This document shows positions 626-43,118 of a stretch of 64,000 bases of DNA, in pieces. How positions within the stretch are numbered: the first letter of the stretch is position 1; each line of letters opens with the position of its first letter. Under the pieces are notes generated by a model. That model saw only the letters and a list, made by a program, of their open reading frames with translations. It did not search any database and had not been told where the DNA came from. A program made the position numbers and the translations under genes. The DNA comes from a virus (taxonomy: Duplodnaviria; Caudoviricetes): the IMG/VR virus record IMGVR_UViG_3300023283_000076, positions 32,001 to 96,000 of that record; one strand, given 5' to 3'.

Positions 626-631
626 AATTAC

Positions 632-4087: not shown

Positions 4088-4105
4088 AATCGTATAATAT
4101 CATTG

Positions 4106-4366: not shown

Positions 4367-4404
4367 AGTGTGAACTCCTTTGTGGTGATGTATTATATCA
4401 GAGA

Positions 4405-5568: not shown

Positions 5569-5594
5569 CTCTTTAATGATGTCAAATGATGAAA

Positions 5595-5668
5595 TGGTGT
5601 CTCCTGACGGTTACGATCCGCCTACTACAACTTGTAAGGATGCCATGATTCCATTTCACCAAGGAGAC
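5595..5668 (-). tRNA. tRNA-Val(UAC)
   Basis: GTCTCCT/AGGAGAC acceptor, loop CTTACAA, atypical T-loop ATCGTAA, CCA. Confidence 0.8.
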
Positions 5669-5690
5669 CGTTACAAGCGAATTTCTAATC

Positions 5691-5768
5691 TGGTGCCGAT
5701 GGAGAGATTCGAACTCCCGCGCTTTCGCTTACAAGGCGACTGCTCTGGCCAAACTGAGCTACATCGGC
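5691..5768 (-). tRNA. tRNA-Thr(UGU)
   Basis: GCCGATG/CATCGGC acceptor, loop CTTGTAA, TTCGAAT, CCA. Confidence 0.93.
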
Positions 5769-5940
5769 ATATCCCTTATTTATTAACTCTGTATATCTTT
5801 GTCTTCTAGACGGTTTATGACCATAGCACGAGTATGTTCGCATATACCGTGTTTGATACTCGACCAACTAACAACATTAACCACTCTAGGTAGCATATTT
5901 GTTAAGTGTGTATAAAGAATACTACAGTTTTACCGATTTG

Positions 5941-6108
5941 TCAATCATCCCAATCTGTTTCATAACGTCGATTATACTCTTCTTCAATTTCATATTCTAA
6001 CTCTTCAATCTTATCTTCTAATTCTTCAATAGATTCTTCGTCGTTATCTCTACGTGCATTAGCTAACTGCTTAGTTAATTCGACAAGACGTTGTTCAAGT
6101 TTGTTCAT
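5941..6108 (-). CDS. Small acidic coiled-coil protein; paralog of 32004..32171
   Basis: MNKLEQRL...RRYETDWDD, near-identical in both arms. Confidence 0.8.
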   Translation of the reverse strand: MNKLEQRLVELTKQLANARRDNDEESIEELEDKIEELEYEIEEEYNRRYETDWDD

Positions 6109-6151
6109 AATGCTATTTAATAATTCCTTATTGTTAAATATGTCAAAAAAT

Positions 6152-6198
6152 GGACAGTATGGTATAAGCCAAAAGAAGGCATACACTACATACTGTCC
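6152..6198 (-). other. Conserved hairpin downstream of rIIB
   Basis: GGACAGTATG/CATACTGTCC stem; compensatory change in the right-arm copy 31901-31959. Confidence 0.7.
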
Positions 6199-6213
6199 AC
6201 TGTTTTGGTTACC

Positions 6214-7218
6214 TTACTTAACCCAAGCCCATGTATCACCGTTGCGAATCTTACGAATTGTAGCTTCATCTACATTATACACATCTGCAATTCGTACAAT
6301 CGGCCATATACCCTCTGCCAGCAACTGTCTAATCCCCCTAACCTTATGTTCGTTCAGTTTACTTCGAGTTACACGAGAGTTTGGGGTTTCAACGTTGGGC
6401 TTTGGTTCACCCTCTGCGCCCTCCAAGTCTGTAAATTGATCGTCATCATCCAAATCACCATCAACATCACCATATTCGTCAGTATAAAACGAAGGTGTCA
6501 GCGTTTCATCGTTATAGAACTGATCTGAAATATCATCTACAACTTCATAAGCGCAAACACGCATCTTGGCATTATTATAATCTTTGGGAACCGCTACTAC
6601 ATCCTTTGGATGAACCTTGACAAGGAGAACTTTGTTCCCCGGTCCACTACCGAAACAAGGAAGATAACTACGGGAACATACATGCAATCCATAGGAACAG
6701 GTACGTTCAGAATCTTCGTCTACCTTGTTACGTGGAATTTCAACCTTAGTTCCTACTACATTACTAATAGTACCGCTATGAATATCGGTAAAGTCATTAC
6801 GAACTTTCTTGTATGCAAGGAAATGTCCATCGTTAGTAAAAGGCAAATCACATGCTTCCAAAAATTGCCTATACAATTCATTAACAACACGATAACTGTT
6901 GTCCATTAGATTATCCATGACCCGAAGCAACGGCTTGTAGGGATACCCATTAGCCCACAGAAAATGCAATCTATTAACAATTACATTATAGATTTCATCA
7001 CCATTGAAATACAGATTGTAACCATCAAAAGTAATACGTCCAGCGGATTCACTTTCAATGTTTGCCTTTGCATTCAGCAAACGGTCAAGACTATATTCAT
7101 CACCATTAGTGATCGCATCCATCACTGCATCAAACTGATCGGTTGAACGCGGAATTGTGTGAGCCTTACCATTCAAAACTACACACAAATTTTGTTCCGT
7201 CAAATTCCAAGCTAACAT
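6214..7218 (-). CDS. rIIB: RIIB-like lysis inhibition protein with C-terminal HTH
   Basis: YKKVR.DF.DIHSG, D...TCSYGLHVCS, KVHPKDVVAVP.DY...KMRVC.YEV; adjacent to rIIA. Confidence 0.88.
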   Translation of the reverse strand: MLAWNLTEQNLCVVLNGKAHTIPRSTDQFDAVMDAITNGDEYSLDRLLNAKANIESESAGRITFDGYNLYFNGDEIYNVIVNRLHFLWANGYPYKPLLRVMDNLMDNSYRVVNELYRQFLEACDLPFTNDGHFLAYKKVRNDFTDIHSGTISNVVGTKVEIPRNKVDEDSERTCSYGLHVCSRSYLPCFGSGPGNKVLLVKVHPKDVVAVPKDYNNAKMRVCAYEVVDDISDQFYNDETLTPSFYTDEYGDVDGDLDDDDQFTDLEGAEGEPKPNVETPNSRVTRSKLNEHKVRGIRQLLAEGIWPIVRIADVYNVDEATIRKIRNGDTWAWVK

Positions 7219-7277
7219 TTTATAAATCTCCTATTTATTTAACGAGTATATAGTATAACCTATAATTTAAGGAATTG

Positions 7278-9731
7278 TCAAGCAATTTCATCAATAATTT
7301 CCTTTGCAATCCTGACCGGATCAATCAGAATAGTATCAGAATTGAAACAATCAATAATTTTGCAATGATTCCCAATTCTACCTTCAACAAACAGATTTAG
7401 AAAAGTCTTTCTATTAGCTGGATTCTTGAGCATTTTTACAATTATCTTATGATTCTCCACCATAGAAAGAATAGGGATATTCAAACCCTTTAATTCCTTT
7501 TCAAGCTGTTCCATTGAAGTGGCAGAATTTAGGATGTTTTGAACATTCTGTTGAAGATTCAAAACATCATGCGTACCCAAATATGCCATTACATTCTTAA
7601 ACCTTTCCGGGTGCATCGAGCCTAGAAAATTTGACTTTTCTTTACCTGAATTATTTTTTTCATATTCAGCTTTCGATACAAAAACATCATCCAACCCAAC
7701 CAGTGTAATGTCCCGTTCAATCTTGATACTTTCAAGAATGTTAAACATCATTCTGTTCATGTTGAAGTGCATATGTATTCTATTTTCATACGCTTCAACA
7801 ATAGCATCATTAATACTGCTTCGGGCGGTCTTAATGATTTCATCCTTGTGAGTTTCAAAGTAATCCTTAACAGATACAAAATTGTTTGGATTCTTTTTCA
7901 ATGCACGTTTCATATCTTTTTCTGAAATACCGATACATGCATAATCATCAGACTTTTTAATTGCAACATAATTAAATATCAAATGTAGAATTTCAAATGG
8001 CAATCCAGTATCACCAATCTTATTGTTGTACGTATTGAAACATACAAGAGTCTTACCATTATAATCTTCGACGGTTTCTTCAAATTCTTGATCGCAACCG
8101 TAACTATACAATGTATTACTACTATTATTAAAAATTTGACTGTTCAGCCAGAACCAAGAACGCCTCTTACCACCAGTAATACTATGACCAGTAGACTTGG
8201 TATTACGTGACGGCATAGGAAGGCTAGATATTTTTGTAATATCTCCCGCAGCACCATCTAGAAACTTAATGAAGCTATTATACTTATCCTTCGGCAAATC
8301 AATAATTACAAATTTTCTACCAGACTCGACATCATTGAACGTTCTTGTAACATACGCATAATTTTCATCCTTGTAATAAACAGGATTATTCCCGAGAATG
8401 CGATTCAACACATTAAACGCAAATGGGGAATTTTCATAGTCAGGAGTGCCATTGGCCCTATTTGAATTAGACCATGAATAGTGTGATTCTTTCTTAGGCT
8501 TACCATTGATACAAGAATAATCAGATACTTCCAATTCCTTAAATTTTCTAGGAAGTTTCAAATTTAACAAATTGTTCCTATTAATATAAAACGGATTGTA
8601 CTTTTGATTGAATCGTTCCCTCGGCAGAAGCGATACCATGAACTCCGGCAAATCATTATACAAATTGTAAAACTCACCTTTTGAAGTAGCAAAAGCATCA
8701 TCGAGTTTATGCTTGATAGAACCAAACATTTTATTCCTAACATTATCTAGTGCAACGCAAATATTATGCATCGTTTCTTGAGTGTACGAGATACCTTCAC
8801 GACTGGCCGTAACTTCTACGGTACCAATAGGCATATCCATATATGCACCATAAATATTAAACCTACCGCATGTTCTACGGTTGAACGATTCAAGAAACTG
8901 AATGAAACGCTCGCCCTCATGTTGTGGGTTTCGAGCATAATATGGCAGATTCTTAGAACTTCCGGTTTTACTAATATGAGTAGTGTAATAGTCACGTATT
9001 AAATCAAAGTCTACTGGATATGCTACCGGACCCTGCTTGATAAAGAATCCATGCATAACATCATCATTTGATTGAAAGTACACGAACTCATCAATCTTAG
9101 CAATTTCCTTTTCAATCGTCGGCCATTCTACGTTAGCTTCCGGCTTTACCGGAAAGAAACGAAGCTGCTTTACCAAAGAATTTTTAAATTCATGGAAATC
9201 CTTTGGATCAATAGTTACTGTTACTTCAAGACCGTTAGGTTCATCAGTTTCTTCACCTTCATTGAACATGCTAATCTGTGGTAATCCCTCTTCAAGATAA
9301 GCATTATATACACGCTTCACACCCTTATGAATAGAAGTCACCATGAATGAATCAGTGTATGAAAACGGAGTCTTAGAACCGAGACCGAATGCGCCTACAG
9401 CATCATTGGCCTGATCCTTAGTAGAACCAAAGTACGTGGTATAGATACCTTCAACATCCTCATGGCTTAACCCCGGACCAAAATCACGAACCGAAAAGGT
9501 AGGATCAAAAGCATCCGGAAGCTTAACCTTAAAAGGCTTTTCAGGACACCCGGCTTCAACGTGAGCATCAAAAGCATTGCAGCTAATCTCACGAATGATA
9601 GAACCAATCTTATCCTTATAAAGAGTATCAGACAAGACACGAGCCACCTTAGCGTTCATATCCATCTTGAATTTTGCAACTTCTTTAAATCCTACGCCTG
9701 TAGCCTTATGGGTACTGATATTGAGCTTCAC
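7278..9731 (-). CDS. rIIA: RIIA-like protein (GHKL/Hsp90-like ATPase N-domain)
   Basis: IREISCNAFDAH, VRDFGPGLS, GAFGLGSKTPFSY, SREG.SY. Confidence 0.9.
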   Translation of the reverse strand: MKLNISTHKATGVGFKEVAKFKMDMNAKVARVLSDTLYKDKIGSIIREISCNAFDAHVEAGCPEKPFKVKLPDAFDPTFSVRDFGPGLSHEDVEGIYTTYFGSTKDQANDAVGAFGLGSKTPFSYTDSFMVTSIHKGVKRVYNAYLEEGLPQISMFNEGEETDEPNGLEVTVTIDPKDFHEFKNSLVKQLRFFPVKPEANVEWPTIEKEIAKIDEFVYFQSNDDVMHGFFIKQGPVAYPVDFDLIRDYYTTHISKTGSSKNLPYYARNPQHEGERFIQFLESFNRRTCGRFNIYGAYMDMPIGTVEVTASREGISYTQETMHNICVALDNVRNKMFGSIKHKLDDAFATSKGEFYNLYNDLPEFMVSLLPRERFNQKYNPFYINRNNLLNLKLPRKFKELEVSDYSCINGKPKKESHYSWSNSNRANGTPDYENSPFAFNVLNRILGNNPVYYKDENYAYVTRTFNDVESGRKFVIIDLPKDKYNSFIKFLDGAAGDITKISSLPMPSRNTKSTGHSITGGKRRSWFWLNSQIFNNSSNTLYSYGCDQEFEETVEDYNGKTLVCFNTYNNKIGDTGLPFEILHLIFNYVAIKKSDDYACIGISEKDMKRALKKNPNNFVSVKDYFETHKDEIIKTARSSINDAIVEAYENRIHMHFNMNRMMFNILESIKIERDITLVGLDDVFVSKAEYEKNNSGKEKSNFLGSMHPERFKNVMAYLGTHDVLNLQQNVQNILNSATSMEQLEKELKGLNIPILSMVENHKIIVKMLKNPANRKTFLNLFVEGRIGNHCKIIDCFNSDTILIDPVRIAKEIIDEIA

Positions 9732-9850
9732 TTGTTAAATCTCCTATGTTTGTTAAGTGAACAGTCTACCAAAAAATTTAGTGATTTGCAATAGAAATTT
9801 TTAATTCATTTCCTTATTCACGAACCGCCATCGTACCATGGAACCCCATT

Positions 9851-10213
9851 CTAGTCAAGAGTCAACCCATGCCAATACTTAACACTAAGATTACGGGTAC
9901 TTTTTATTTTGTTATTCTTATCTACATACACATTTTTATAGTTTATTTCATCTAATTGTGCCTTTAATTTATTCAATGATTTTCCTGAAACAATATTGAT
10001 ATATGGATTAACGATATCGACAGACACATAAAAATTTTCTTTTGTGTCATAGCGTGCATATTCCAAACTCGCACAATCTCCATTTGATGACCGTGGATGG
10101 TATAACAAAACCATTCCGCTATCCTCATCTTCAATAAGCATAATGGCCTCTATTATTTCACCGATGTCACGTACTCCGAATTCACTAGTGACCTTATATT
10201 TAACAATATTCAT
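9851..10213 (-). CDS. Hypothetical protein; paralog of 27415..27759
   Basis: Shared LLYHPR.SNGDCASLEYA.YD. Confidence 0.8.
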   Translation of the reverse strand: MNIVKYKVTSEFGVRDIGEIIEAIMLIEDEDSGMVLLYHPRSSNGDCASLEYARYDTKENFYVSVDIVNPYINIVSGKSLNKLKAQLDEINYKNVYVDKNNKIKSTRNLSVKYWHGLTLD

Positions 10214-10378
10214 TGTTCAACACCTACTTCCATTGTTTCCAAAATGACATCCCCGAAACTTGGAGACACTGTTATTTCTTCATAGTAGCTATCAAAACGA
10301 TTCAATGTGTAACCACCAGTAGAAAACATATCGAGATCCTCTTTAACCATATATTTGATATTACTCAAAATATCATGT

Positions 10379-11154
10379 TTAAGCTACCTTTACATTCATA
10401 GAAATATTAAACCCTGTATTAGGGTCACGAACAAATCCTGACGTATCTTGTATAGCGTCAGCCTTTGCGGACAACGCTACAATGTGCCCACCATCAGGAT
10501 CAAGAAACCGTGCGTCAAATTCATCACCGTCAATGACAGGATACCCACCCCATGTTTTAGGCTTCGGATCATTACGCTTTAGTCGCATGACTACAGCAAG
10601 ATTGTAACCTTGCTTCAAGGCTTCGATAGCTTGAGCATCATTATCTTCGGCCAAGCTATACGTTAAATGATAATTAGGCATAGCCAATGCCATCTTTCTA
10701 TTCAGAATTTTTGTATAATCATAAAACTGGATTCCCGGAAATGCCCGCATGATATTACGATAATTAACACCCTGACGAACAACACGGATTTTTTCAAACG
10801 GAATATCACTGGTGCCGTTGAGACGAATTGCCGGTATCATTTTTCACGGTGGGCTTTACGCTCCAATGATTCAGCGTTCTGTACCAATTGTACCATGAAG
10901 CTGTCACGCTCTTCAAAAAACCACTTGGTCTTACGAATACGTGCCTTTTGTACATCATTAAAGCGACCATGCCCGGAAGTATACAAACATGCTTTCTTAC
11001 AACCTTCCGTAGCATTTGCGCATGTATTATAACCACTAATGTCATTCGGGGCGAGATACAAGATACCAGTCAATATACCCTTTTTAAGACTTTTGATCGT
11101 TTTGGCATCTGCACCTACGCTCAACAGGTTTTTCGACTTGTAACCAGTATGCAA
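10379..11154 (-). pseudogene. GP88-like phage protein split by a 1-nt deletion
   Basis: 10837..11154 plus 10379..10840 equal intact 26336..27112; GAAAAGATG became GAAAAATGA. Confidence 0.75.
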
Positions 11155-11225
11155 TTAAATTCTCCTAATTTGTTGGAAATAAAGTATATCTGATGTTTGC
11201 TTAACTGTCAATAGATTCTTTAATT

Positions 11226-11417
11226 TTACTTTAGACGCGGCAAAATTCTTTTTTCGATATGATCTGCGATTTCTGAAAATGACATTCCACCGTCATTCAT
11301 CTTTATCAGCGTAATTTTTGTATTTTCGGATAGTACATCATAACTAAGAATCTCTTGTTGTTCACCCCACTCAGGTTTATATTGAGGCTTATCCTGTGTA
11401 TCTTTCAAAACACCCAA
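11226..11417 (-). pseudogene. 5'-deleted remnant of 25940..26263
   Basis: Only the C-terminal part CCLGVLK.TQDKP...EKRILPR remains. Confidence 0.65.
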
Positions 11418-11477
11418 ACAACAAAAATATGCACAAGGATCTGTTCATAAACATCATTATTATACACAAAAACTCTA

Positions 11478-11838
11478 TCAAATCTCCTCAAAATAAACAT
11501 ACAATCCATTTCGGTTAATAGATAATACAATAAAACAATGCTCTTTTGTCAAATGAATAGAAAGATCATAGATTTCTACTTCGGTATCTACTTCCCATCC
11601 ATTTTCACATAATACATTGAATAAGATATCCAATCTTTTAATTAAATTCTTAATGGTTCGATTGTTGGAAAGATAAGTGTCTGACTCTATAAATGAAAAT
11701 CCATCACCGGGATAGGATTTTTCATTATTGCTTGTATAATTTGAAACAAATCTTTCATCCATACCTGTGATATTTGTAATGAATGTTTTAACTTCGTTTG
11801 CAAGTTCGGTTTTTCGTTTACTGTGTGTATTATTCATG
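11478..11838 (-). CDS. Hypothetical protein; paralog of 25261..25602
   Basis: Shared LFNVLCENGWEVDTE..HLTK.HCF. Confidence 0.75.
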
Positions 11839-11876
11839 ATAGTAAGAATACCATAGATTGAGGTTAAAGTAAATAA

Positions 11877-12075
11877 CAGCATGAGATTATTGCTACAAAT
11901 TGATCGCCTTTCGTCGCCGTACCCATAATTTTCCTATTATGGTTAACTCCTTATCCAGATAAACCAAGTGCAAAACACTTGCGAATACCTATCGATCAAG
12001 CAGTGCCATCTTGTAAAGTTGGAAGCTTTCACCTTCTGGAGCAAATGACTGATTCGATTACTCACTATCCAACTT
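11877..12075 (-). ncRNA. Two adjacent structured RNA domains (A 12016-12075, C 11877-12014) without the GOLLD-like insert
   Basis: Homologous to 24282-24361 and 25100-25238, with compensatory stems. Confidence 0.65.
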
Positions 12076-12142
12076 GGAAACCATCCTAACGCTTTATTTA
12101 TTCTTTGTCAACACTCTTTTCAATTTTTTCTCTCAATACATA

Positions 12143-12415
12143 CTATTCTTGTATTTCATCATCTAAATGTAAAGCCCATACAATATCAACAAATTGTTCT
12201 TCTGTCAAATCAGTCGGATCACCATAATATTCTTCTAACTTTACATGCATCAAATTACCCTGACCAACACGCCCTGTAAAAATACGACCAATGTCGACAA
12301 TTCGGTAAACCGTATTAGTCAAGCTATCATAGGCATAATCATCAACACTAGGCAAGCCATTACCACGTTCTTCAATTACGCCACTTATAATATCAGTCAT
12401 GTTTAATTTCTCCAT
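12143..12415 (-). CDS. Hypothetical protein; paralog of 23956..24213
   Basis: MTDIISGVIEERGNGLPSVDDYAY shared. Confidence 0.8.
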   Translation of the reverse strand: MEKLNMTDIISGVIEERGNGLPSVDDYAYDSLTNTVYRIVDIGRIFTGRVGQGNLMHVKLEEYYGDPTDLTEEQFVDIVWALHLDDEIQE

Positions 12416-12671
12416 TAAATACAGCTACAGCACAGTGAAAACCATCAGGGCCAAACCATTCTGTTGGCTCATTTTCTTCATGTTGTTTCTCTGGAGCATA
12501 CAAACCACCACAATGTCCAGCAGTCCTAGCAGTCTCATATAAACTTTCTTCAAGACCGACCTTACCGCTGTTAACTAAATCATACGCTTCACTCAAATTA
12601 GACACGACACCAAGAAATGATTCGCAGCATCCATCTGGCGCTTCATATACATTATATCCTACAATATCCAT
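12393..12671 (-). CDS. Hypothetical protein; only a C-terminal scrap on the right arm (~23920-23977)
   Basis: GFHCAVAVFNG..HD tail present on both arms. Confidence 0.7.
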   Translation of the reverse strand: MDIVGYNVYEAPDGCCESFLGVVSNLSEAYDLVNSGKVGLEESLYETARTAGHCGGLYAPEKQHEENEPTEWFGPDGFHCAVAVFNGEIKHD

Positions 12672-12754
12672 GTCATAAAATCCTTAGTTATAAGTGTTGA
12701 TAATTCCCTATGGGAAACGTCTATTATATATAATTAAAAAAAATATGTTAAACA

Positions 12755-12868
12755 CTAAGTATCATCAACTTCACGATAAGAATAACGATCATCCTTGCTT
12801 ATTTTAACATAACTCCATACAGTAACTGCAATCAATAACAACGCAATAAATCCAAATATGTAAATCAT
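12755..12868 (-). CDS. 37-aa single-TM protein; paralog of 23794..23907
   Basis: MIYIFGF..LLL.AVTVW, manual translation. Confidence 0.65.
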   Translation of the reverse strand: MIYIFGFIALLLIAVTVWSYVKISKDDRYSYREVDDT

Positions 12869-13644
12869 TTCTTCTTCCTCTTTGTCGGATATTTTCTGAA
12901 AGACCAATCATCAAATCCCTTGGCCTTAGACATGTCTTTATCAGATATATCTACCATATCAGGCTCAGACGGCGCAAACACCGATCCCATGTACATAGAC
13001 AATTCCTGATAAGCAGTATATGGATCAAATATAGCAGCAAATCCAAAATCTTGCAAGACCGGATTCCTCGTGATTCTTACCCGATTACTATACCTGATTG
13101 GCCTCAAATGAAAAATAGGACAATTAAGATGCAAAAAAATATCATTGGCATTTCCCCTTATTAAATCCTTTACCTCACCTACCACAATACGATCCTGCTC
13201 TTTCTTATCCATTTTTTTAAACAAACTATTTTTCTTATCAATTACCCGAAATACTTCACTTCTATAATCCATAAAATAACTAATCGAATACATTACAAAA
13301 AATCTACCACAAAATCCGATTACATCAACTTCACTAGAAATGACATTAACGTTCCTCTTGGAATATTGTTCAAAAATATTTTTTAAAATACGTCCGTTAT
13401 TATGTAAATTTCTGGCATTTTTATTACGAGGCCTATAACCATATCCGAAATATTCAGGATTCAATTTTTTTTCAAAAAATAAAGACTCTCCATCCCGTTC
13501 TACTGTAATATACGAATTACCAAAATCTACAGTAGATACAATAGATTTATCAAAAGCACCTTCACGTTTGAAAATCAACGTGGGATCATAACCTGACCCC
13601 ATCGCCGAATCATAATAATCTGAATATTTTGAAATTATTTTCAT
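12865..13644 (-). CDS. Conserved phage hypothetical protein; paralog of 23015..23797
   Basis: M.IISKYSDYYDS...IGFCG...DPYTAYQELSMY...KGF.DWSF.K.P. Confidence 0.85.
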   Translation of the reverse strand: MKIISKYSDYYDSAMGSGYDPTLIFKREGAFDKSIVSTVDFGNSYITVERDGESLFFEKKLNPEYFGYGYRPRNKNARNLHNNGRILKNIFEQYSKRNVNVISSEVDVIGFCGRFFVMYSISYFMDYRSEVFRVIDKKNSLFKKMDKKEQDRIVVGEVKDLIRGNANDIFLHLNCPIFHLRPIRYSNRVRITRNPVLQDFGFAAIFDPYTAYQELSMYMGSVFAPSEPDMVDISDKDMSKAKGFDDWSFRKYPTKRKKK

Positions 13645-13653
13645 CTCTATTCC

Positions 13654-13794
13654 CTATTTTGAACGCGCTCGCGAATCATCAATATGCTTCTTGAGCTTAC
13701 CCTTGATTCCTAATGCGAACCGGGACAATTTAGTCAATCCGATGACTACCAATATTCCAATTGTAGCATACAACGGCACAAAATACAAAACCAT
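13654..13794 (-). pseudogene. C-terminal remnant (46 aa) of the membrane protein 21250..21729
   Basis: VLYFVPLYATIGILVVIGLTKLSRF..GKL..HIDD aligns to the end of 21250..21729. Confidence 0.6.
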
Positions 13795-13803
13795 ATCTTA
13801 AGA

Positions 13804-13832
13804 CCTTTATCATATTTTTATGATGTTGTCAA
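13804..13832 (-). promoter_or_regulatory. TTGACA-N17-TAAAGG promoter-like motif
   Basis: One of 9 copies of the motif. Confidence 0.65.
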
Positions 13833-13896
13833 CCCTTGATCTAACACTTTTTGTATGCTATGCTATGGTAGCAAATACCATATCCCATACGCTAAA

Positions 13897-14071
13897 TGAG
13901 AATCATTATCATTTGCAATAGCGTTCGTATATGATAAAAATGTTTGACAATTTTTTGAAACTATGATACGATGAAAGTAATATGCAAAAAATCTGAATGC
14001 GAACGATTATCATTTCCAACCCTACTTGAGAATGGTTCGTATTCTCACAAGCGTGATGAGAATGATTCTCG
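13897..14071. promoter_or_regulatory. Fur-box-like sites
   Basis: TGAGAATcATTATCA (13897), TGCGAACgATTATCA (13998), TGAGAATgATTCTCG (14057) vs TGATAATnATTATCA. Confidence 0.6.
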
Positions 14072-14487
14072 TTTGTACCCTCATTACCATCCTCAATACC
14101 CTTTCCTACACTTGAAAAATATAAAATACTCTATCCATCATCCAAAAACATAGGGGGCCAAGCTATAAAATTGATTAGTCCCCTAGGGCAAAATCAATAC
14201 CCTTCAAAAAAAGTGTAATAAAAACAATTAGTTATGGTAACAAGGGTCTCAGTGAATTTTTTTAAATTTTTTGACGATAGGGGCCATGCCAAAAAGAGTT
14301 TTACAAGGATCTCCTAATATAGATAAAAAATAGAGTAAAAACAACACTTTAATGCAGGGTTTTTAAAAATTAATAATATAGTGTTTATAGGTTTTTCAGA
14401 ATGATATTATAATGATATCACGATAATATTTATATAATATGATTTTTACAGTTCACATAATAGTATATGTTATTGAAATATATTGAA

Positions 14488-14513
14488 AACCCCTAACGCA
14501 CGCGTTAGGGGTT
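14488..14513. repeat. 26-bp palindrome at the inner end of the left arm
   Basis: AACCCCTAACGC-AC-GCGTTAGGGGTT. Confidence 0.9.
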
Positions 14514-14602
14514 ATGATATATATGCTGATAGTGTTACGCTTAACGAAATATTTAATGGTTTGAAGGTATCTAATAAATATAAAATACTGTATACATAAT
14601 TA

Positions 14603-16323: not shown

Positions 16324-17523
16324 TTAATTATATTCCGTTGCATTTTTTCTGTTCAAATAATCATCAGAAATAGATTTTAAAATCAATCGACCAATAGTAG
16401 TATCAGGAATTTCATATTCAAGAGGTTTAATTACAGCACCTTCCCGAATGTGAGTTCCTGTGATCGAATCCTTTCCATCAGTATATTGCCCTATTGTGCC
16501 ATAAAAAATTGGCCCACGATAAAGCTCTGGAACAGTTTCAATTCCAAATCCTTCCATAACTTTAAGCATGTTTTTGTATGGAAGATATTTACCCTTTCCG
16601 GGTTCGCCTATATAAACATCAAATACTCTGAAATTGGTTTCATTCAACCCATAATCTAAATCTTGAACAGCTTTTCCATATATTTCGCCAATGATATATA
16701 TCGGCTTATTTACTGACGCATCTTCTTTGAGACTTTCCGCTACTTCATAAATATCAAACCGCTCATGAAATTTCTTGAAGGCTTTCATATACAAATTGTT
16801 TGTATTAGCTTCATTATCCTTGAAAGCTAACCCCTTTGAAGAAAGTCCCTTTGAAGTTACAATACAATTAGTATACGGAATTTCTTCGTGAACAGGGTGC
16901 TCTTGCACTCGCTCTCCATTAACATAATAATAATTAGGCCATACACCAAAACAACACCATGTGCCATGAAGCTTTTCTGTAATAACACATTGAATACCTA
17001 AAACCTCTAATGCTTGCTCATATTGAGGATGATTCTTGATATTTTCAATATCATACTTCAAAGTCTTACCAGAAAGATTACAAACCTCACCACTCATCTG
17101 TGTAGGAATTTCAGGTTCCCATTTTACAATATATAAAAATTGAGAAACATCTGTCCCAATATCTTCTTCACCTACAGACATGGCTTCTTCCATACCATAT
17201 TCATTACACAAAATACCATCAACAATAGGATATAATAACCCTAAACTCGTCTCTCCACGAAGCTTAACAGCCTTTACACGATTACCTCTAGAACCAGCTA
17301 GTTTACCAATGCCCTTCTCTACATCCCATAAGTTCATGTCTTCTAAAATGTATCGAGGAACAAGAGTTTGCTCAGGAATGTATACAACAAGATCACCTTC
17401 ATTAAATTGACCCTTTTTAACAATACATTGATATCCCAATACATCAGCAAACTCTAATGCATCTGCATTAGGATGTGGACGAATCCTTTCGATTTTTTCA
17501 ATTGTCGCTTTTCTATCTGCCAT
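16324..17523 (-). CDS. RNA ligase, DRB0094/Rnl2-like family
   Basis: HPNADALE N-domain; TEKLHGT (motif I), GEIYG, FRVFDV, EGAVIK, LILKSIS..YL. Confidence 0.88.
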   Translation of the reverse strand: MADRKATIEKIERIRPHPNADALEFADVLGYQCIVKKGQFNEGDLVVYIPEQTLVPRYILEDMNLWDVEKGIGKLAGSRGNRVKAVKLRGETSLGLLYPIVDGILCNEYGMEEAMSVGEEDIGTDVSQFLYIVKWEPEIPTQMSGEVCNLSGKTLKYDIENIKNHPQYEQALEVLGIQCVITEKLHGTWCCFGVWPNYYYVNGERVQEHPVHEEIPYTNCIVTSKGLSSKGLAFKDNEANTNNLYMKAFKKFHERFDIYEVAESLKEDASVNKPIYIIGEIYGKAVQDLDYGLNETNFRVFDVYIGEPGKGKYLPYKNMLKVMEGFGIETVPELYRGPIFYGTIGQYTDGKDSITGTHIREGAVIKPLEYEIPDTTIGRLILKSISDDYLNRKNATEYN

Positions 17524-17527
17524 ATAG

Positions 17528-18655
17528 TTAACTCGCTTTTTCAAACCATGGTATTTCTAATTCGTTAAATCTCTTAAGCTGTCCGTCATCATAATATTCA
17601 ATTTTATTTTTATATTCATATCCATCAGAATCTTTACGATGAATCAAATTATTATTCGAATCAAATTCTTTCCAATATTCATATCCATCAGAACTTTTAC
17701 AATGAATCAAATTATTATTCGAATCATATTCTTTCCAATATTCAACTTCATCGGAACTTTTATAATGAATCAAATTATTATTCGAATCATATTCTTGCCA
17801 ATATTGAAATCCATTAGAATTCTTATAATGAATTACATTATTATTGGAATCAAATTCTTGCCAATATTCATATCCATCAGAATTCTTATAATGAATCAAA
17901 CTATTATTGGAATCATATTTTTTCCAATATTCAACTTCACCAGAATTCTTATAATGAATCAAATTATTATTCGAATCAAATTCTTGCCAATATTCATGCC
18001 CATCAGAGTGGTTATAATGAATTAAATTATTATTGGAATCATATTTTCTCCAAGATTCTATACCATCAGAATTCTTAAAATGAATTAAATTATTATTGGA
18101 ATCATATTTTCTCCAAGATTCTATACCATCAGAATTCTTAAAATGAATTACATTATTATTCGAATCAAATTCTTGCCAATATTGAAATCCATCAGAATCT
18201 TTATGATGAGTCAAATTATTATTCGAATCAAATTCTTGCCAATATTCATGCCCATCAGAATCTTTACGATGAATCAAATTATTATTCGAATCAAATTCTT
18301 TCCAATATTCATATCCATCAGAACTTTTACAATGAATCAAATTATTATTCGAATCATATTCTTTCCAATATTGAAATCCATTAGAATTCTTATAATGAAT
18401 CAAATTATTATTGGAATCATATTTTTTCCAAGATTCTATACCATCAGAATTCTGATAATAAATCAAATTATTATTCGAATCAAATTCAATGCTATCTTTA
18501 TTATTCTTTAACCACCTGACATAATCTTTATGATCACCGTTAACTTGATCTAATAACTCAAGCGGAAATCCAATAAGATTATTATTTTTTACAAATTCAA
18601 CAGCACTAGTACATGCATCGCGTTCATTTAAAAATTTTTCAGTTAATGTATTCAT
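17528..18655 (-). CDS. Tandem 21-aa repeat protein (beta-repeat, YD/MORN-like)
   Basis: ~14-15 repeats of (E/K)(Y/F)DSNNNLIH(Y/R/F)K(N/D)SDG.EYW.; 63-bp DNA period. Confidence 0.85.
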   Translation of the reverse strand: MNTLTEKFLNERDACTSAVEFVKNNNLIGFPLELLDQVNGDHKDYVRWLKNNKDSIEFDSNNNLIYYQNSDGIESWKKYDSNNNLIHYKNSNGFQYWKEYDSNNNLIHCKSSDGYEYWKEFDSNNNLIHRKDSDGHEYWQEFDSNNNLTHHKDSDGFQYWQEFDSNNNVIHFKNSDGIESWRKYDSNNNLIHFKNSDGIESWRKYDSNNNLIHYNHSDGHEYWQEFDSNNNLIHYKNSGEVEYWKKYDSNNSLIHYKNSDGYEYWQEFDSNNNVIHYKNSNGFQYWQEYDSNNNLIHYKSSDEVEYWKEYDSNNNLIHCKSSDGYEYWKEFDSNNNLIHRKDSDGYEYKNKIEYYDDGQLKRFNELEIPWFEKAS

Positions 18656-24362: not shown

Positions 24363-25099
24363 TAATTAAGAAAAAAGAAGTACAGTTTTGGGCATGACCG
24401 TGATAGCTCATTGAAAGATGGGTAACGGGAAAGGTGCTACCCACCTTCCCGCCTAGAGAAATTTAGGTTGAGTCATGCAAGCCGAGACTCTGGAAAATTC
24501 GTCCATAATAATTCAGGCGGATTTCAGACGAAACGGGATGGTAGGTTAGACCGAGGCCAACTGGTAAGGTCGTTCTAAGGTGACGCTTAGTACCTACATG
24601 TCAACATCTTGAGCGTTGGAGAGTCAAAGGGTAGTTATTTGGTGTGAGTCTTAGCGGATAAATGCTGAATAGCAATGTTAACGGTGAGCTAAACCTTATC
24701 GTGAAACATGGTCGAAAGTAATCTTAGCGGATGAAACGGCAAACGGTGTTGTCATATTTCGTACCTCAAAAGGGTATGAAGTGATGGAGACGGCACATCG
24801 TTAGGTAGTTTGCAGTCTTTGTAGCTCAATAGGTAGAGCTACCGCCTTATAAGCGGTTTGTTGTAGGTTCAAGTCCTACCAAAGACCCATAATAGATAAC
24901 TGGGTTTAAAATGCAAAAGTCCGTCTCGGTAAAAGGTGAGCAAGGTAGTTAAGTCTACACTGCGAAAGCAGAATGTAGAATCTTTGAGGGCCGCAAGCTT
25001 GATAAGATTTGGTTAGAAGCGCACGTCGAGGGCCGTACAACCTTCGGGGGAAGCTGAAAGCCGAGTAGCCTTTTATGACAGCGCAAACGCTAGCGCTTT
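24363..25099 (+). ncRNA. Large ornate ncRNA, GOLLD-like, with embedded tRNA
   Basis: ~740 nt, GC-richer, ORF-free, many hairpins (e.g. CTGC-GAAA-GCAG; TACC-TCAAAA-GGGTA), GAGTAGC near 3' end, internal tRNA; family by resemblance only. Confidence 0.55.
24815..24889 (+). tRNA. tRNA-Ile(UAU)
   Basis: GTCTTTG/CAAAGAC acceptor, ACCGC-CTTATAA-GCGGT, GTAGG-TTCAAGT-CCTAC. Confidence 0.9.
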
Positions 25100-25238
25100 A
25101 CAAGACAGCACTACTTGATCGATAGATATTCGCAAGTGTTTTGCGCTTGGTTTATCTGGATAAGAAGTTAACTTTAGGTTTGCAGCCTGAAGGTACGGCG
25201 ACGAAAGGCGATCAATTTGTAGCAATAATCTCATGCTG
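25100..25238 (+). ncRNA. Structured RNA domain C, conserved in both arms
   Basis: TTGATCG/CGATCAA core stem; inner hairpin differs in sequence between arms but still pairs. Confidence 0.7.
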
Positions 25239-25260
25239 CTATTTACTTTAACCTCAACAT

Positions 25261-25602
25261 ATGGTACTCTTAGTCATGGATAATTTACTCGATAGACAAA
25301 AGAATGATCTTGCAAACGAAATTACAACATTCATTACAAATATTACAGGAGTAGCTGTAGAACCTAATCCGAATGAAGGATTTGAATTTGTAGAGTACAG
25401 GAATTTTATTCCTAACAAACGATCAATTAATAATTCAATTAAAGAATTCAATATTCTATTTAATGTGCTATGTGAAAACGGATGGGAAGTAGATACTGAA
25501 ATAGAAGATTTTGATCTCGCTATCCATTTAACTAAAGCTCATTGTTTTGTTACTTTATCTATTTGTCGAAATGGATTACATGTTTTTTTTGAAGAGATTT
25601 GA
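25261..25602 (+). CDS. Hypothetical protein; paralog of 11478..11838
   Basis: ORF track; paralog. Confidence 0.75.
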   Translation: MVLLVMDNLLDRQKNDLANEITTFITNITGVAVEPNPNEGFEFVEYRNFIPNKRSINNSIKEFNILFNVLCENGWEVDTEIEDFDLAIHLTKAHCFVTLSICRNGLHVFFEEI

Positions 25603-25907
25603 TCATGAGTAATCAGGTAATTATTGATATTCGTCATTTCAGTGATGATATTATTATCTTGGCTGAAGATAATTATGGTAAAACGTTTCTTTCATTTACA
25701 CCAGACACCTACAAAAAATTTTCTAATGTAGAAGAACTTTTGTATGAAGTTGCGACCACACCCGAAATGGATGGATCGTTTTATATAGACCTTGAGGATT
25801 TTTCGGTCGTATGTGAATTATGTAACAGTGTAGAAGTGCATGGGTTTTATCCGCCGTCAGATGAACGTCACGATGAAGTTTTCGTGTATAATAATGACGA
25901 TGACTAA
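25599..25907 (+). CDS. Acidic hypothetical protein (deleted on the left arm)
   Basis: ORF track; coupled to the upstream stop. Confidence 0.7.
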   Translation: MIMSNQVIIDIRHFSDDIIILAEDNYGKTFLSFTPDTYKKFSNVEELLYEVATTPEMDGSFYIDLEDFSVVCELCNSVEVHGFYPPSDERHDEVFVYNNDDD

Positions 25908-34211: not shown

Positions 34212-34819
34212 TTACTCTACTTGGAAAAATTCCCGAAAAGATTGGAATTGCAGTATCTGGCGGAATTGATTCTATGGTTGCTTTGGACTTCATTCAAAGA
34301 AGTTATCGAGATATCACGGTTGTTCATATTAACCATGGTACAGATCATGCTCCCGATGCTCTAGAGTTCGTTAAAGAGCAATCTGAACGTAGAAAACTGA
34401 AGTTTTGGACAAATAAGGAAGATCAATATAAATTCAGCGTGGCTAATAATAAAGAAGAAGCATGGAGAAATTTAAGGTATTCTCACTTTGAAAAATTTGA
34501 TATTCCTATTGTTACTGCCCATCATTTGGACGATTGTCTTGAGACATGGTTATTTTCTACATTCAATGGAAAACCCAAAACAATTCCATATAAACGGGGA
34601 AATGTAATTCGACCATTTTTGTTAACTAAAAGACAATCAATTGTTAACTATGCTAGCAAACATGGTGTAGAATACATTAATGATCCATCGAATAATGATT
34701 GTAATTATATGCGTAATCAGATTCGACATAAAATTGTTCCAGAAGTATTGAAAGTTAACCCGGGTATTCATAAAATTGTGCATCGTATAATAAAGGATAG
34801 ATATGACAGAACTATATAA
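34208..34819 (+). CDS. tilS: tRNA(Ile)-lysidine synthetase, second copy
   Basis: SGGIDS, HINHG, TAHHLDD, RPFL, RNQIRH. Confidence 0.9.
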   Translation: MITLLGKIPEKIGIAVSGGIDSMVALDFIQRSYRDITVVHINHGTDHAPDALEFVKEQSERRKLKFWTNKEDQYKFSVANNKEEAWRNLRYSHFEKFDIPIVTAHHLDDCLETWLFSTFNGKPKTIPYKRGNVIRPFLLTKRQSIVNYASKHGVEYINDPSNNDCNYMRNQIRHKIVPEVLKVNPGIHKIVHRIIKDRYDRTI

Positions 34820-35129: not shown

Positions 35130-35519
35130 GTGAAACAAATGAATGACAAAACAAACCCGAATCTAGTAACTCGTAATGGTCAACGAATCCATGTGATTCA
35201 TGATCGTGATAACCGTGCTAGTTATGGATATGTTCTACAACCGTCTGAAGATGGTCAAAATGTTCATGTTCGAGTAGCACGGTCTGTTTGTTCTAAGCAA
35301 GATAGCTTCAACAAGAAAGTTGCTATTCGTGTAGTAAAGAACCGTCTTGATTCTGGTCCTAAAGGTTCCAATCAGCATCGTATGTTTGATTCTACGATTG
35401 CGGTTCCAGTACCATCTAATTCTAATGAATGGCGTGAGCTAGACCAGACTATTGTTAGCCTTGCTAATTTGAAGCTTACTGAACCTGAAAAGATTCGCCG
35501 TTGGCATTCCAGTGAATGA
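35130..35519 (+). CDS. Hypothetical protein; paralog of 2349..2750
   Basis: ORF track; paralog. Confidence 0.8.
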   Translation: MKQMNDKTNPNLVTRNGQRIHVIHDRDNRASYGYVLQPSEDGQNVHVRVARSVCSKQDSFNKKVAIRVVKNRLDSGPKGSNQHRMFDSTIAVPVPSNSNEWRELDQTIVSLANLKLTEPEKIRRWHSSE

Positions 35520-41402: not shown

Positions 41403-41703
41403 TTAATATGGATTTAGTTATGTATCGTAATAATATAGATCCTATACCTAAAAGAGAAGAGGAAGAAGACTATGATTAGACGTATTATTTTAACATTTTT
41501 ACCTTGGTGTATACTTGTAACTATTGCATGTGTTATCGCAATCCAGATTAATGCAAGTTTATCTATTGCGATATTATTAGGCGGAATTTCAAGTACAATT
41601 GGCGTAGTTAGTGGAGTTTTAATATATGATAACATTGAGAAATGATTAATATAGAAGAAACTCTTGACAAAACTGCTAAATAGTGTTAATATTAATTGAA
41701 TAT

Positions 41704-41789
41704 GGGTGAGATGGGAGAATCGGTACTCCTGCCGGGCTGTAACCCCGGTGCCTTAGTGCATGTTGGTTCGAATCCAACCTCACCCACCA
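41704..41789 (+). tRNA. tRNA-Tyr(GUA)
   Basis: CCGGG-CTGTAAC-CCCGG, long variable arm, CCA. Confidence 0.93.
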
Positions 41790-41848
41790 GATGAAGAAAT
41801 ACTTGATTAAAGTTTTCAAAAGATGTAATATTAGATAAATAGAAACAT

Positions 41849-41925
<77 letters not shown>

Positions 41926-41931
41926 ATTTAC

Positions 41932-42007
41932 ACCCTTGTAGCTCAACTGGAAGAGCAAGAGATTTCTACTCTCTAGGTTGCGGGTTCGAGTCCTGCCGAG
42001 GGTGCCA
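41932..42007 (+). tRNA. tRNA-Arg(UCU)
   Basis: AGAGA-TTTCTAC-TCTCT; GCCA end. Confidence 0.93.
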
Positions 42008-42019
42008 GAATTTAAAAAT

Positions 42020-42103
42020 GGGTAAGTCTGGTACGGGTGAACCAAGCTGACTGTACATCAGTGTCCTCTGGACTTGGACGTTCGAGTCTCTCCCTACCCA
42101 CCA
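42020..42103 (+). tRNA. Atypical second tRNA-Tyr(GUA), possibly degenerate
   Basis: GCTGA-CTGTACA-TCAGT; C37, acceptor mismatch, poorly paired T-stem. Confidence 0.6.
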
Positions 42104-42280
42104 ATTGTTTTTATAAATAATGTTGCTTATATATTGAATATATGTTATCATAAATATAATAATGAATAATAGGTATCAATATAAAGCTAACTATTCTAAT
42201 AGAGTTTTACGATGGTTAAGAAATACTCCACGTAAAGAAATCTATGAATGGATTGAAGAGCAGAAGCGTAAGAAATATAA

Positions 42281-42406
42281 GGGTGTGTAGCTCAGCGGTT
42301 TAGAGCGTCCGACTGTGGAAGTTGTGGGATACGTAGATCAGGTTCAACTCCTGAAACTTCAAAGGTAATCGGATGGTCGTAGGTTCAAATCCTACCACGC
42401 CCTCCA
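42281..42406 (+). tRNA. tRNA with ~49-nt insertion in the anticodon loop (possibly Asn GUU after removal)
   Basis: Perfect acceptor, D, T arms and TCCGA/TCGGA anticodon stem enclosing 56 nt instead of 7. Confidence 0.85.
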
Positions 42407-42410
42407 ATTT

Positions 42411-42701
42411 TTGACCCCCCTTCATGTTTTAGTTTGCCATACCTATAAAATCGAGAATAGTAATGTTAGTAAACAAACCTTAAAATCTAGATATTTGAAA
42501 CACAGGGAAACTCTTGACATTACTTTCGAATGTGATATAATAGACTGTAAAATATCAAAATGGTATGGTAAAAAATTGAATCTTCAATTAGATCATATCA
42601 ATGGTATAAATAATGATAACAGGTTGAAAAATTTAAGATTACTTTGTCCTAATTGCCATAGTCTAACGGAGACATTTGCAGGGCGAAAGAAATTACAATA
42701 G
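42411..42701 (+). CDS. HNH endonuclease (probably N-terminally truncated)
   Basis: LQLDHINGINNDNRLKNLRLLCPNCHS. Confidence 0.8.
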   Translation: MTPLHVLVCHTYKIENSNVSKQTLKSRYLKHRETLDITFECDIIDCKISKWYGKKLNLQLDHINGINNDNRLKNLRLLCPNCHSLTETFAGRKKLQ

Positions 42702-42768
42702 GTACGAGCATAGATTGCCGACCAGATTTGGAATCTGGGAGAGAGATTTCGATTATCTTCGCACCCGC
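42700..42768 (+). tRNA. Degenerate short tRNA-like gene, UGG anticodon
   Basis: CCAGA-TTTGGAA-TCTGG, GAGAT-TTCGATT-ATCTT, reduced D-arm, mismatched acceptor, GCCA. Confidence 0.5.
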
Positions 42769-42786
42769 CAAATTAAAAATGTAATA

Positions 42787-42860
42787 GACAGGATGCCAGA
42801 GTGGTAATGGGCGTGGTTGCAACCCACGAGTCGAGGGTTCGATTCCCTCTCTTGTCTCCA
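42787..42860 (+). tRNA. tRNA-Cys(GCA)
   Basis: CGTGG-TTGCAAC-CCACG; U73; CCA. Confidence 0.92.
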
Positions 42861-42870
42861 AAGTTTCAAT

Positions 42871-42948
42871 GGTGAGTGTGGCGGAACTGGTAGACGCACC
42901 TGACTGTGAATCAGGCACTTGTGGGTTCGAGTCCCATCATTCACCCCA
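42871..42948 (+). tRNA. tRNA-His(GUG) with encoded G-1
   Basis: CCTGA-CTGTGAA-TCAGG; G-1:C73. Confidence 0.93.
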
Positions 42949-42954
42949 ATTTAA

Positions 42955-43027
42955 ACAAGACTGGTCCTCGCATGACTGTCCCGATAGTAAGAGCAAAGGT
43001 CGTTAATTGATTTGCCACCAGTCTTGT
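42955..43027 (+). repeat. 73-bp stem-closed element, copy 1 (copy 2 at 49582-49653)
   Basis: ACAAGACTGGT...ACCAGTCTTGT; two near-identical dispersed copies. Confidence 0.9.
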
Positions 43028-43043
43028 ATTTTCTTTAAACATA

Positions 43044-43118
43044 AAAATCATCCCGTTCGGGATGATTTTCTATTATTATCTGTTATTTTAATTGAATCAT
43101 CCCGAACGGGTTGATTTC
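43044..43118. terminator. Two related hairpins at the convergence of the + tRNA cluster and - genes
   Basis: AAAATCATCCCG-TT-CGGGATGATTTT and GAATCATCCCGAACGGGTTGATTTC. Confidence 0.65.

Follow-up and report, generated by a model that had tools for sequence, protein, structure and literature searches.

Compact tRNA-like inserts at anticodon positions 35/36 in tRNA genes of large phages

An interrupted tRNA-Asn gene and the family of its insert

The DNA analyzed here (the window) is a 64,000-nucleotide (nt) stretch of a Caudoviricetes genome, positions 32,001 to 96,000 of IMG/VR virus record IMGVR_UViG_3300023283_000076. On its plus strand, positions 42281-42406 hold a transfer RNA (tRNA) gene for asparagine whose anticodon is interrupted by 49 nt. 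The tRNA body has a 7-base-pair (bp) acceptor stem GGGTGTG/CACGCCC (one G.U), a D-arm, the anticodon stem TCCGA/TCGGA, a 5-nt variable loop, the T-arm GTAGG-TTCAAAT-CCTAC, U73, and an encoded CCA; the strands of the anticodon stem are separated by 56 nt rather than the standard 7. The Rfam tRNA model (RF00005) matches 42281-42403 with 58.8 bits (gathering threshold, 29), covering all of model positions 1-71, with 52 nt inserted at the anticodon loop. When introns are permitted, ARAGORN reports a tRNA-Asn(gtt) with a 49-nt intron at gene position 37, i(37,49). Removal of 42317-42365 leaves the 7-nt loop CUGU/UAA with anticodon GUU (Asn), and ARAGORN finds no second tRNA-Asn in the window. The original prediction, made from the letters of the window, had described a tRNA with 49 extra nt in its anticodon loop, a tRNA-like element nested there, and an Asn GUU anticodon (loop CUGUUAA), otherwise missing from the window, that excision would leave. 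Every element it described is present, ARAGORN agrees on the anticodon, and the Rfam score and the family anatomy given below bear out a tRNA-like element nested in a real tRNA-Asn gene. Two other calls were rejected: the tRNA-Leu(CAA) that ARAGORN gives by default at 42311-42406 is an artifact of forbidding introns, and a tRNA-His(GUG) with an intron at the canonical 37/38 site is ruled out by an intron-less homolog, by an Asn gene at the same place in a related arm of the record, and by the lack of a G-1.

The 5' exon (42281-42316, tRNA nt 1-35) ends in C32 U33 G34 U35; Rfam and ARAGORN define it, and a homolog from phage OLIVR5, discussed below, fixes the junction. The insert (42317-42365) begins with a single unpaired G42317. 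The acceptor-like stem P1 follows, its 5' strand GAAGTT (42318-42323) pairing with AACTTC (42355-42360). Between the strands lie a 14-nt D-loop-like linker with GGG (42324-42337), for which most family members have (A)AGG, and a T-arm, TCAGG/TTCAACT/CCTGA (42338-42354), in whose 5-bp stem four of the five pairs covary. The 3' strand of P1 comes directly after the T-stem, like the acceptor strand of a tRNA, and a single-stranded tail, AAAGG (42361-42365), takes the place of roughly positions 72-76, with the 3' junction after G42365. In terms of the covariance model (R1) and the covariation described below, the whole is approximately positions 1-76 of a mini-tRNA without an anticodon arm, and its GG-containing loop and T-loop may make an elbow contact. 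The 3' exon (42366-42406, from Rfam and ARAGORN) supplies U36 A37 A38, TCGGA, the variable loop, the T-arm, the acceptor 3' strand, U73, and CCA. A 600-nt unitig spans 42216-42815 with 0 differences in two sequencing runs, which rules out an error of this one assembly as the source of the insert. Folded by itself, the insert is no more stable than shuffled sequence (z = -0.74), and the case for more than chance therefore depends on comparison with other sequences.

Relatives of the insert had to be sought with degenerate patterns: an exact 25-mer of the intron had no match in IMG/VR, and a megablast of 41600-43100 against isolate phages returned ordinary tRNA-Pro matches only. The patterns were run over IMG/VR and JGI/ENA metagenome contigs and filtered by R1, which was built from the first eight sequences and scores the window insert at 70.8 bits (E = 4.6e-17). 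The search yielded about 20 distinct members on viral and metagenome contigs; the contigs include jumbo phages of 208, 285, and 315 kilobases (kb) and the cultured 490-kb Agrobacterium phage Atu_ph07. The host genes are mostly tRNA-Asn(GUU), with tRNA-Lys(UUU), two CAU tRNAs (Met or lysidine-Ile), and one GUU tRNA with a long variable arm making up the rest, and across five whole genomes R1 found no other member types. A pattern of T-arm plus tail matched mostly ordinary tRNAs followed by AAAGTAA and gave L013 as the sole new member. In representatives of 185,579 bacterial and archaeal species the same pattern gave 34 matches and no credible member; the single R1 match among the 34 is weak (31 bits), lies outside any tRNA, and was taken as false. 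This restriction to phages would fit a need for a phage factor, or a plain phage-restricted selfish element.

All 20 members are inserted at 35/36 with a 3' exon opening in U36 A37 A38, a context to which the search was partly biased, since the pattern demanded TAAT. They share one plan: a purine, a stem of about six positions, a variable D-like segment, a T-stem of five positions, and a tail. The D-like segment usually has (A)AGG, as a loop or on a short hairpin, and the T-loop reads T-K-C-R-A-N-Y in 20 of 20. Also constant are the single nt ahead of P1 (20 of 20) and the lack of a spacer between the T-stem and the 3' strand of P1; a 5-nt tail, usually AAAAG, follows P1 in 19 of the 20. Overall length varies from 43 to 52 nt.

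The helices covary. In an independent MAFFT alignment of the 20 members, tested over three helices against 500 shuffles, 91.5% of cells are paired (61% in shuffles) and 97 cells have changed on both sides (27.8 in shuffles), and the covariation score of 0.78 (against 0.18) was reached by 0 of the 500 shuffles. Sliding the partner columns by one to three positions drops pairing to 26-47%. Both-side changes occur at all six pairs of P1. Five Asn members have a near-identical D-like loop and T-arm and wholly different first stems (GATACT, AGAGGC, GGCGCT, GATGCT, and GAAGCT), a clear case of compensatory evolution. These results bear on an alternative in which the gene is dead: a recombination scar, or a piece of some other tRNA, has destroyed this tRNA-Asn, and its loss is tolerated because the host supplies tRNA-Asn. 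The unremarkable stability of the isolated insert (z = -0.74), the unusual U73 of the window tRNA, and the availability of tRNA-Asn from the host would suit such an origin. However, about 20 members share one site and one architecture with compensatory changes in both stems, their exons are all intact, and in two complete genomes the interrupted genes are the sole isoacceptor copies. The covariation largely refutes the dead gene, which we consider very improbable. The original prediction had itself raised a recombination scar confined to this genome; what we find is about 20 distinct sequences, with compensatory changes. In all, we are highly confident that the insert is a real, selected, intron-like RNA element.

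An intron-less homolog fixes its ends. Agrobacterium phage OLIVR5 has a tRNA-Asn, annotated by tRNAscan-SE, that is near-identical to the exons of family member L007 and lacks exactly the 47-nt L007 insert between CTGT and TAA. With G at both ends of the intron and T on either exon edge, the junction can be placed in only one way: between U35 and U36, within the anticodon, and not at the canonical 37/38 site of archaeal and eukaryal introns. The dimensions of the intron are those of a tRNA. P1 (six positions plus a purine-purine mismatch at its base, which in the window is a G.A mismatch at the equivalent of 1:72) and the T-stem (five) make 12 stacked positions, matching the acceptor/T-arm stack of a tRNA. 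The T-loop ends 16 nt before the 3' junction in 16 of the 20 members; in three Lys members the distance is 15 nt, and in one member it is 17 nt. Positions 61-76 of a tRNA span the same 16 nt, and the intron is thus equivalent to positions 1-76 of a tRNA lacking its anticodon arm. By this count, the 5' junction falls where RNase P would be expected to cut the minihelix, and the 3' junction at what would be the equivalent of position 76, the mature 3' end.

Other unusual tRNA genes came to light in the same genomes and contigs. At L005:1952-2090, a class II body (long variable arm, U73) carries the same 50-nt mini-tRNA intron, and excision would give GUU (Asn), a combination of isotype and body not expected in bacteria. 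A second class of short anticodon-loop insert consists of simple hairpins of 26, 33, and 36 nt, at G001 35367-35479, G001 100663-100770, and G002 192665-192786 (loci L049, L053, and L046). The first of these has an intron-less twin, a tRNA-Lys at G001 34337-34423, and its junctions can be placed such that a 2-nt 3' overhang remains, the kind that RNase III makes. Two tRNA-like sequences with good acceptor and T arms and extra middles of about 167 nt (L033:4761-5003) and about 37 nt (L028:1211-1330) have no R1 match; they could represent additional types of insert. A tRNA with a CUA anticodon (amber suppressor), labeled Pyl by ARAGORN, is encoded on intron-bearing contigs at L028:4912-4987, L031:88-163, L033:2680-2755, and G001 76266-76343.

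The interrupted genes as tRNAs, and sites with and without the insert

In some large phages, interrupted genes are the only copies. In the complete 208-kb genome (G002), the sole tRNA-Lys and tRNA-Asn genes carry the intron, and in the complete 315-kb genome (G001), the sole GUU tRNAs are interrupted. Most Asn members of the family have G73, the identity base for the asparaginyl-tRNA synthetase of Escherichia coli, and in the window genome (34.5% G+C) Asn codons make up 7.2% of the codons of the long open reading frames (ORFs). From the sole copies, the G73, and the use of Asn codons, we infer that the exons are selected as tRNA, and hence that the insert must leave the RNA. The cultured Atu_ph07 offers a further case. 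According to its description (PMC6102473), it has tRNAs for every amino acid but Asn and Thr. An intron-bearing tRNA-Asn with an intron of 46 nt lies at MF403008.1 323910-324019, where nothing is annotated; judged by its sequence, this interrupted gene is the "missing" tRNA-Asn. Standard annotation misses interrupted genes of this kind, which biases phage tRNA inventories and arguments from codon usage.

It could also be supposed that the exons are never rejoined, and that the gene is a carrier from which cuts by RNase P and further nucleases free the mini-tRNA as the useful product, perhaps as a decoy for tRNA-binding defense proteins or enzymes, or as a regulator of tRNA processing. The conserved T-loop and GG-containing loop do suggest a folded tRNA elbow open to protein binding, and an intron-less tRNA-Asn is also present in L004, L028, L031, and L033, as well as in arm 1 of the window record (see below). 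A carrier, however, would need neither an intact anticodon stem nor an exact site, whereas the exons still form faultless tRNA bodies with correct anticodon halves, G73 being kept in most, the insertion is always at 35/36, where a 7-nt loop can be restored, and the interrupted genes are the only Asn and Lys(UUU) genes in G001 and G002. We regard a carrier role as improbable. A related proposal in the original prediction, that the insert is a decoy shielding the anticodon from anticodon nucleases, is not supported: once spliced, the tRNA would be no less exposed than other tRNAs, and we see nothing in favor of a decoy.

The window record provides a site with the insert and one without it. Within the 270-kb record, about 46 kb are duplicated in inverted orientation, the copies having diverged to 75-95% identity (window 1-14558 versus 19775-64000; genome 1-46558 versus 51775-102686). 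In arm 1, the locus shares its upstream ORF and its downstream tRNA-Cys with the window locus, has between them a plain and rather different 75-nt tRNA-Asn, and lacks the 506-nt cassette of tRNA, intron, and HNH ORF (42281-42786). Unitig depths at the tRNA-Asn locus (arm 2:arm 1) were 35.5:22.9, 6.2:20.3, 0:76, and 0:15.8 in four runs. Since the ratio differs between runs, the two arms probably derive from separate but related phages, fused head to head during assembly into what is probably a chimeric record. The cassette of the window and its counterpart in arm 1 would thus be, in effect, an occupied and an empty site in co-occurring relatives. A tandem array of about 14 copies with a 63-bp period (window 17612-18487, 83-91% identical) lies at the center of the inverted structure and may be the point where the assembly switched. 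Upstream of the interrupted gene, at window 42020-42103, is an 84-nt tRNA-Tyr(GUA)-like sequence ending in ACCA that neither ARAGORN nor Rfam calls (it has an A6.C67 mismatch and C37). In the other arm, the corresponding sequence (genome 29228-29314, minus strand) does receive a tRNA-Tyr call, and the window sequence looks like a decaying duplicate.

A second candidate for an empty site comes from a rhizosphere library labeled "METAGENOMIC RNA-Seq" (run X5). A 2,194-nt contig from this run matches the tRNA-Ser/Asn region of Atu_ph07 (L013:7849-7896) and skips exactly the 46-nt intron; its flanks are diverged, marking it as a relative of Atu_ph07. The contig could be either an intron-less allele or spliced RNA.

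Immediately downstream of the window tRNA-Asn, and beginning 5 nt past it, is a 96-amino-acid ORF (42411-42701, plus strand) whose translation has a full HNH zinc-finger motif, making it a candidate free-standing homing endonuclease. It scores 21.3 bits with HNH_3 and 21.0 bits with HNH, both just under the Pfam cut-offs, and has no in-frame ATG, its only start being the TTG at 42411. A perfect sigma-70 consensus (TTGACA, 16 nt, TG-TATAAT) lies within this ORF at window 42514-42541, facing tRNA-Cys/His. Elsewhere in the family, genes for HNH_3 (44.7 bits), SegE-type GIY-YIG (31.6 bits), and DUF559 (46 bits) proteins are found within about 1.5 kb of the interrupted tRNA; in all, 8 of 12 loci have an HNH, GIY-YIG, or DUF559 endonuclease gene within that distance. 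Empty and occupied sites, of which OLIVR5 and L007 make a further pair, together with nearby endonuclease genes are the pattern of a mobile intron with free-standing homing endonucleases, and the intron probably spreads, or is kept, with such candidate enzymes. The original prediction had not noticed this side of the insert, neither the adjacent HNH gene nor its uneven occurrence among close relatives.

How the insert might be removed

We now have a selected insert with an exact junction in genes that appear to be needed. It is tempting to connect these findings in a single account: a functional tRNA-Asn(GUU), split at 35/36 by a mini-tRNA intron, from which RNase P and a second cut would release the intron and whose exons a phage ligase would join, the intron spreading with homing endonucleases. 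We give this account as a whole a probability of about 0.4. In it, the acceptor/T-arm shape of the minihelix would draw enzymes that recognize that stack. RNase P would cut between U35 and the first G of the intron, leaving a 3'-OH on the 5' exon, and a second endonuclease would cut after the tail, at the equivalent of position 76, leaving a 5'-phosphate on U36. With the anticodon stem keeping the halves together, an ATP-dependent RNA ligase of the phage would close the nick between 3'-OH and 5'-phosphate. At the DNA level, the intron breaks up the most conserved stretch of the gene. The route through RNase P and ligase, which is read from sequence, is tentative.

Several features of the window and of related genomes can be set beside these steps. 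RNase P prefers U at -1 and G at +1. The A-rich context of the 3' junction (AAAG/UAAU) resembles an RNase E-type site, for example, ACAG/UAUU of RNA I, a likeness to be taken as a lead only. The window encodes an ATP-dependent RNA ligase of 406 amino acids with an N-terminal OB domain (16324-17544, minus strand; PF09414, 68.8 bits, and PF21189, 65.5 bits), which we infer to be a candidate for sealing the exons; the original prediction had pointed to this ligase and given it as 16324-17523, and the gene exists, on the minus strand and ending at 17544. Among five intron-bearing phage genomes (G000-G004), PF09414-type ligases are present in G000-G003 and Rnl1-type ligases in G000, G002, and G003, and kinase-like AAA_33 genes occur in G001-G004. 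In the window record, a single Rnl1-type RNA ligase (24990-25604) is encoded in a 5.5-kb segment (genome 23431-28937) beside tRNA-Cys/Asn that is particular to arm 1; arm 2 has nothing at that place.

A number of observations count against the account. At the DNA level, 4 of the 12 loci have no nearby endonuclease gene, and homing-endonuclease genes are frequent in phage tRNA clusters generally. The window tRNA has U73 rather than G73. No enzyme is assigned to the 3' cut: the canonical RNase Z site is after position 73, and cutting there would leave three extra bases and a 10-nt loop, and an RNase Z-like metallo-beta-lactamase protein was found in none of the five genomes. The tail is AAAG-like, not CCA, and would thus make no RCCA contact with bacterial RNase P RNA. 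No run recorded as RNA contains window or Atu_ph07 sequence, and no spliced junction, free intron, or mapped ends were found. Finally, the presence of a ligase is not discriminating, as RNA ligases and polynucleotide-kinase-like genes are common in jumbo phages (PMC7824862). The original prediction had proposed excision by tRNA-end-processing enzymes followed by resealing with the phage ligase; in that proposal, the geometry stands, with the 5' junction at the expected RNase P site and the 3' junction at the position-76 equivalent, but a simple pairing of RNase P with RNase Z would give no 7-nt loop.

A different set of enzymes may be considered, in which a dedicated phage-encoded endonuclease removes the intron and the ends are then healed and sealed by a polynucleotide kinase/phosphatase and an RNA ligase of the phage, in the manner of tRNA repair by phage T4. 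This would be in keeping with an insert seen in phages only (none of 185,579 species genomes gave a credible member), with the AAA_33 kinase-like genes of G001-G004 and the ligases of G000-G003, with a 3' junction that matches no known host tRNA nuclease, and with the fixed distance of both junctions to P1, as one ruler-like enzyme would produce. The enzyme itself is the difficulty. No candidate gene was found, no EndA-like domain was found, and no neighbor gene is common to all loci; moreover, the tRNA dimensions (12 stacked positions and a 4-nt overhang) are more simply explained by existing tRNA enzymes. We consider a dedicated nuclease unlikely; given the kinase-like genes in G001-G004, such an enzyme might act by a cyclic-phosphate route.

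Splicing by RNA is more doubtful still. A minimal ribozyme-type intron that splices itself, or that is spliced by a trans-acting phage RNA, would find some encouragement in the window, where the 5' exon ends in U (U42316) and the intron in G (G42365), echoing the group I rule. That rule is broken in the family, by A35 in the CAU tRNAs and by a terminal C or U in two Lys members, and few unpaired bases besides the T-loop are conserved. At 49 nt, the insert is also too small for a group I core. Rfam yields no ribozyme or intron match even at E up to 10, neither for Intron_gpI (core P3-P9), searched also at the gathering threshold, nor for hammerhead, twister, pistol, hatchet, and other small self-cleaving ribozymes; the only non-tRNA match in 42200-42480 is a plastid leader at chance level (E = 0.77). 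We therefore rate self-splicing as quite improbable.

An archaeal-type bulge-helix-bulge intron, cut by the splicing endonuclease, is the least probable of the alternatives, and we give it hardly any weight. The predicted fold does have a 3-nt UAA bulge on the 3' strand at the anticodon stem, beyond which C32-U35 and the intron tail could pair as a helix of four positions. But there is one unpaired base at the 5' junction instead of a 3-nt bulge, and so no 3-4-3 motif, the central helix contains a G.A mismatch, and the junctions lie at helix ends and not in bulges. The splicing enzymes are missing as well: EndA (PF01974) and RtcB (PF01139) are absent from G000-G004 in searches that detected them in control genomes, and a domain search of the intron-bearing genomes likewise showed no tRNA_bind domain. 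The original prediction had judged the insert too short for a group I intron and not a clean bulge-helix-bulge, and the Rfam searches and the missing 3-4-3 motif agree with it on both points.

Altogether, a covarying insert of 43-52 nt that has no known self-splicing route, and that nevertheless sits in the only Asn or Lys gene of some complete phages, implies an undescribed RNA-processing pathway in infected bacteria. Removal by RNase P, a second cut, and a phage ligase would make this a third route of tRNA splicing, beside group I self-splicing and the archaeal/eukaryal endonuclease pathway, at work in large phages: a mini-tRNA mimic would be cut by the cell's own tRNA-end nucleases, the phage ligase, an enzyme known to date from repair, would join the anticodon, and selfish introns would shield genes from homing endonucleases. 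We put this forward as a possibility on the doubtful side. Because Atu_ph07 and its host Agrobacterium tumefaciens C58 are a cultured pair, the question is open to direct bench test.

Comparison with known systems

The bacterial and phage tRNA introns whose mechanism has been worked out are, to our knowledge, all group I introns that splice themselves, and splicing of tRNA by proteins is considered an archaeal and eukaryal trait. We found no description in the literature of the compact 35/36 insert class or of a mechanism for it. In a survey from 2020, bacterial tRNA introns count as group I (10.1101/2020.01.27.920355), and a 2026 review of jumbo phages mentions introns in passing only. What is new here is the 35/36 family with its covariance model, its ruler-like dimensions, its presence in a cultured phage-host pair, and the pair of occupied and empty sites with an HNH cassette.

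The existence of tRNA-like inserts in tRNAs of large phages was already known, if unexplained. The nearest published match is the "enigmatic" introns in tRNAs of Lak megaphages, one of which "itself may encode a tRNA" and for which no mechanism was offered (Devoto et al. 2019, Nat Microbiol, Fig. 4 and Table S6; PMC6784885). Like the present family, these are non-group-I inserts in the anticodon loop, with a tRNA-like part, in very large phages and with intron-less alleles (PMC6784885). Their tRNA-like part consists of a 7-bp acceptor-like stem and a GTTCGAWT T-arm (PMC6784885). The differences are in layout and position. Lak introns are 79-114 nt long (43-52 nt here), and they place a leader of 25-31 nt (hairpin plus A-rich run) before a fuller tRNA-like element, whereas the present family has neither leader nor anticodon arm; the opening hairpin is similar to the simple-hairpin inserts of the second class noted above. 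They end 1-2 nt past the acceptor-like stem, where the present family keeps a 5-nt tail, and they lie at about 36/37 in Tyr, Phe, Thr, and Gly tRNAs instead of at 35/36 in Asn, Lys(UUU), and CAU tRNAs. The Lak layout is our reading of Table S6, and the two families are set apart by description, not by alignment.

Group I introns also interrupt tRNA anticodon loops, for example, in tRNA-Leu(UAA), and at cyanophage psbA a group I intron is associated with "collaborative homing" by a free-standing endonuclease. The insert shares with group I tRNA introns the anticodon-loop site, the presence/absence polymorphism, and the homing-endonuclease genes nearby, and, as with those introns, insertion in the most conserved DNA would protect it from an endonuclease of the uninterrupted site. 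Group I introns have a ribozyme core, however, and the smallest natural ones are about 200 nt; the insert has 49 nt, no core, and no Rfam match. The junction letters of the window (U42316, G42365) follow the group I rule of U(-1) and terminal G, which is not kept across the family.

Embedded tRNA-like structures that signal processing by RNase P and RNase Z are familiar from the mascRNA of MALAT1, the t-elements of plant mitochondria, and mitochondrial tRNA punctuation. In these, as may be the case for the insert, an acceptor/T-arm minihelix marks the cuts of tRNA-end nucleases. There the flanks are not rejoined, while the flanks of the insert are tRNA halves that would need ligation. Archaeal and eukaryal bulge-helix-bulge introns resemble the insert in being short and in the anticodon loop, with exon ends held by the anticodon stem, and they are spliced by proteins. 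They differ in having a 3-4-3 motif, the 37/38 position, and EndA plus RtcB, where the insert has no such motif, the 35/36 position, and neither enzyme in five phage genomes.

The closest parallel for the sealing step is tRNA repair by phage T4, with Pnkp and Rnl1, in which a phage ligase seals a break in the anticodon loop that the rest of the tRNA holds together (PMC7824862). Ligase genes are also present in the intron-bearing genomes. In T4, the break is damage done by the host at 33/34 of tRNA-Lys, whereas the break at 35/36 would be programmed by the phage gene itself. If this proves true, phage RNA ligases have a routine job beyond the repair of damage.

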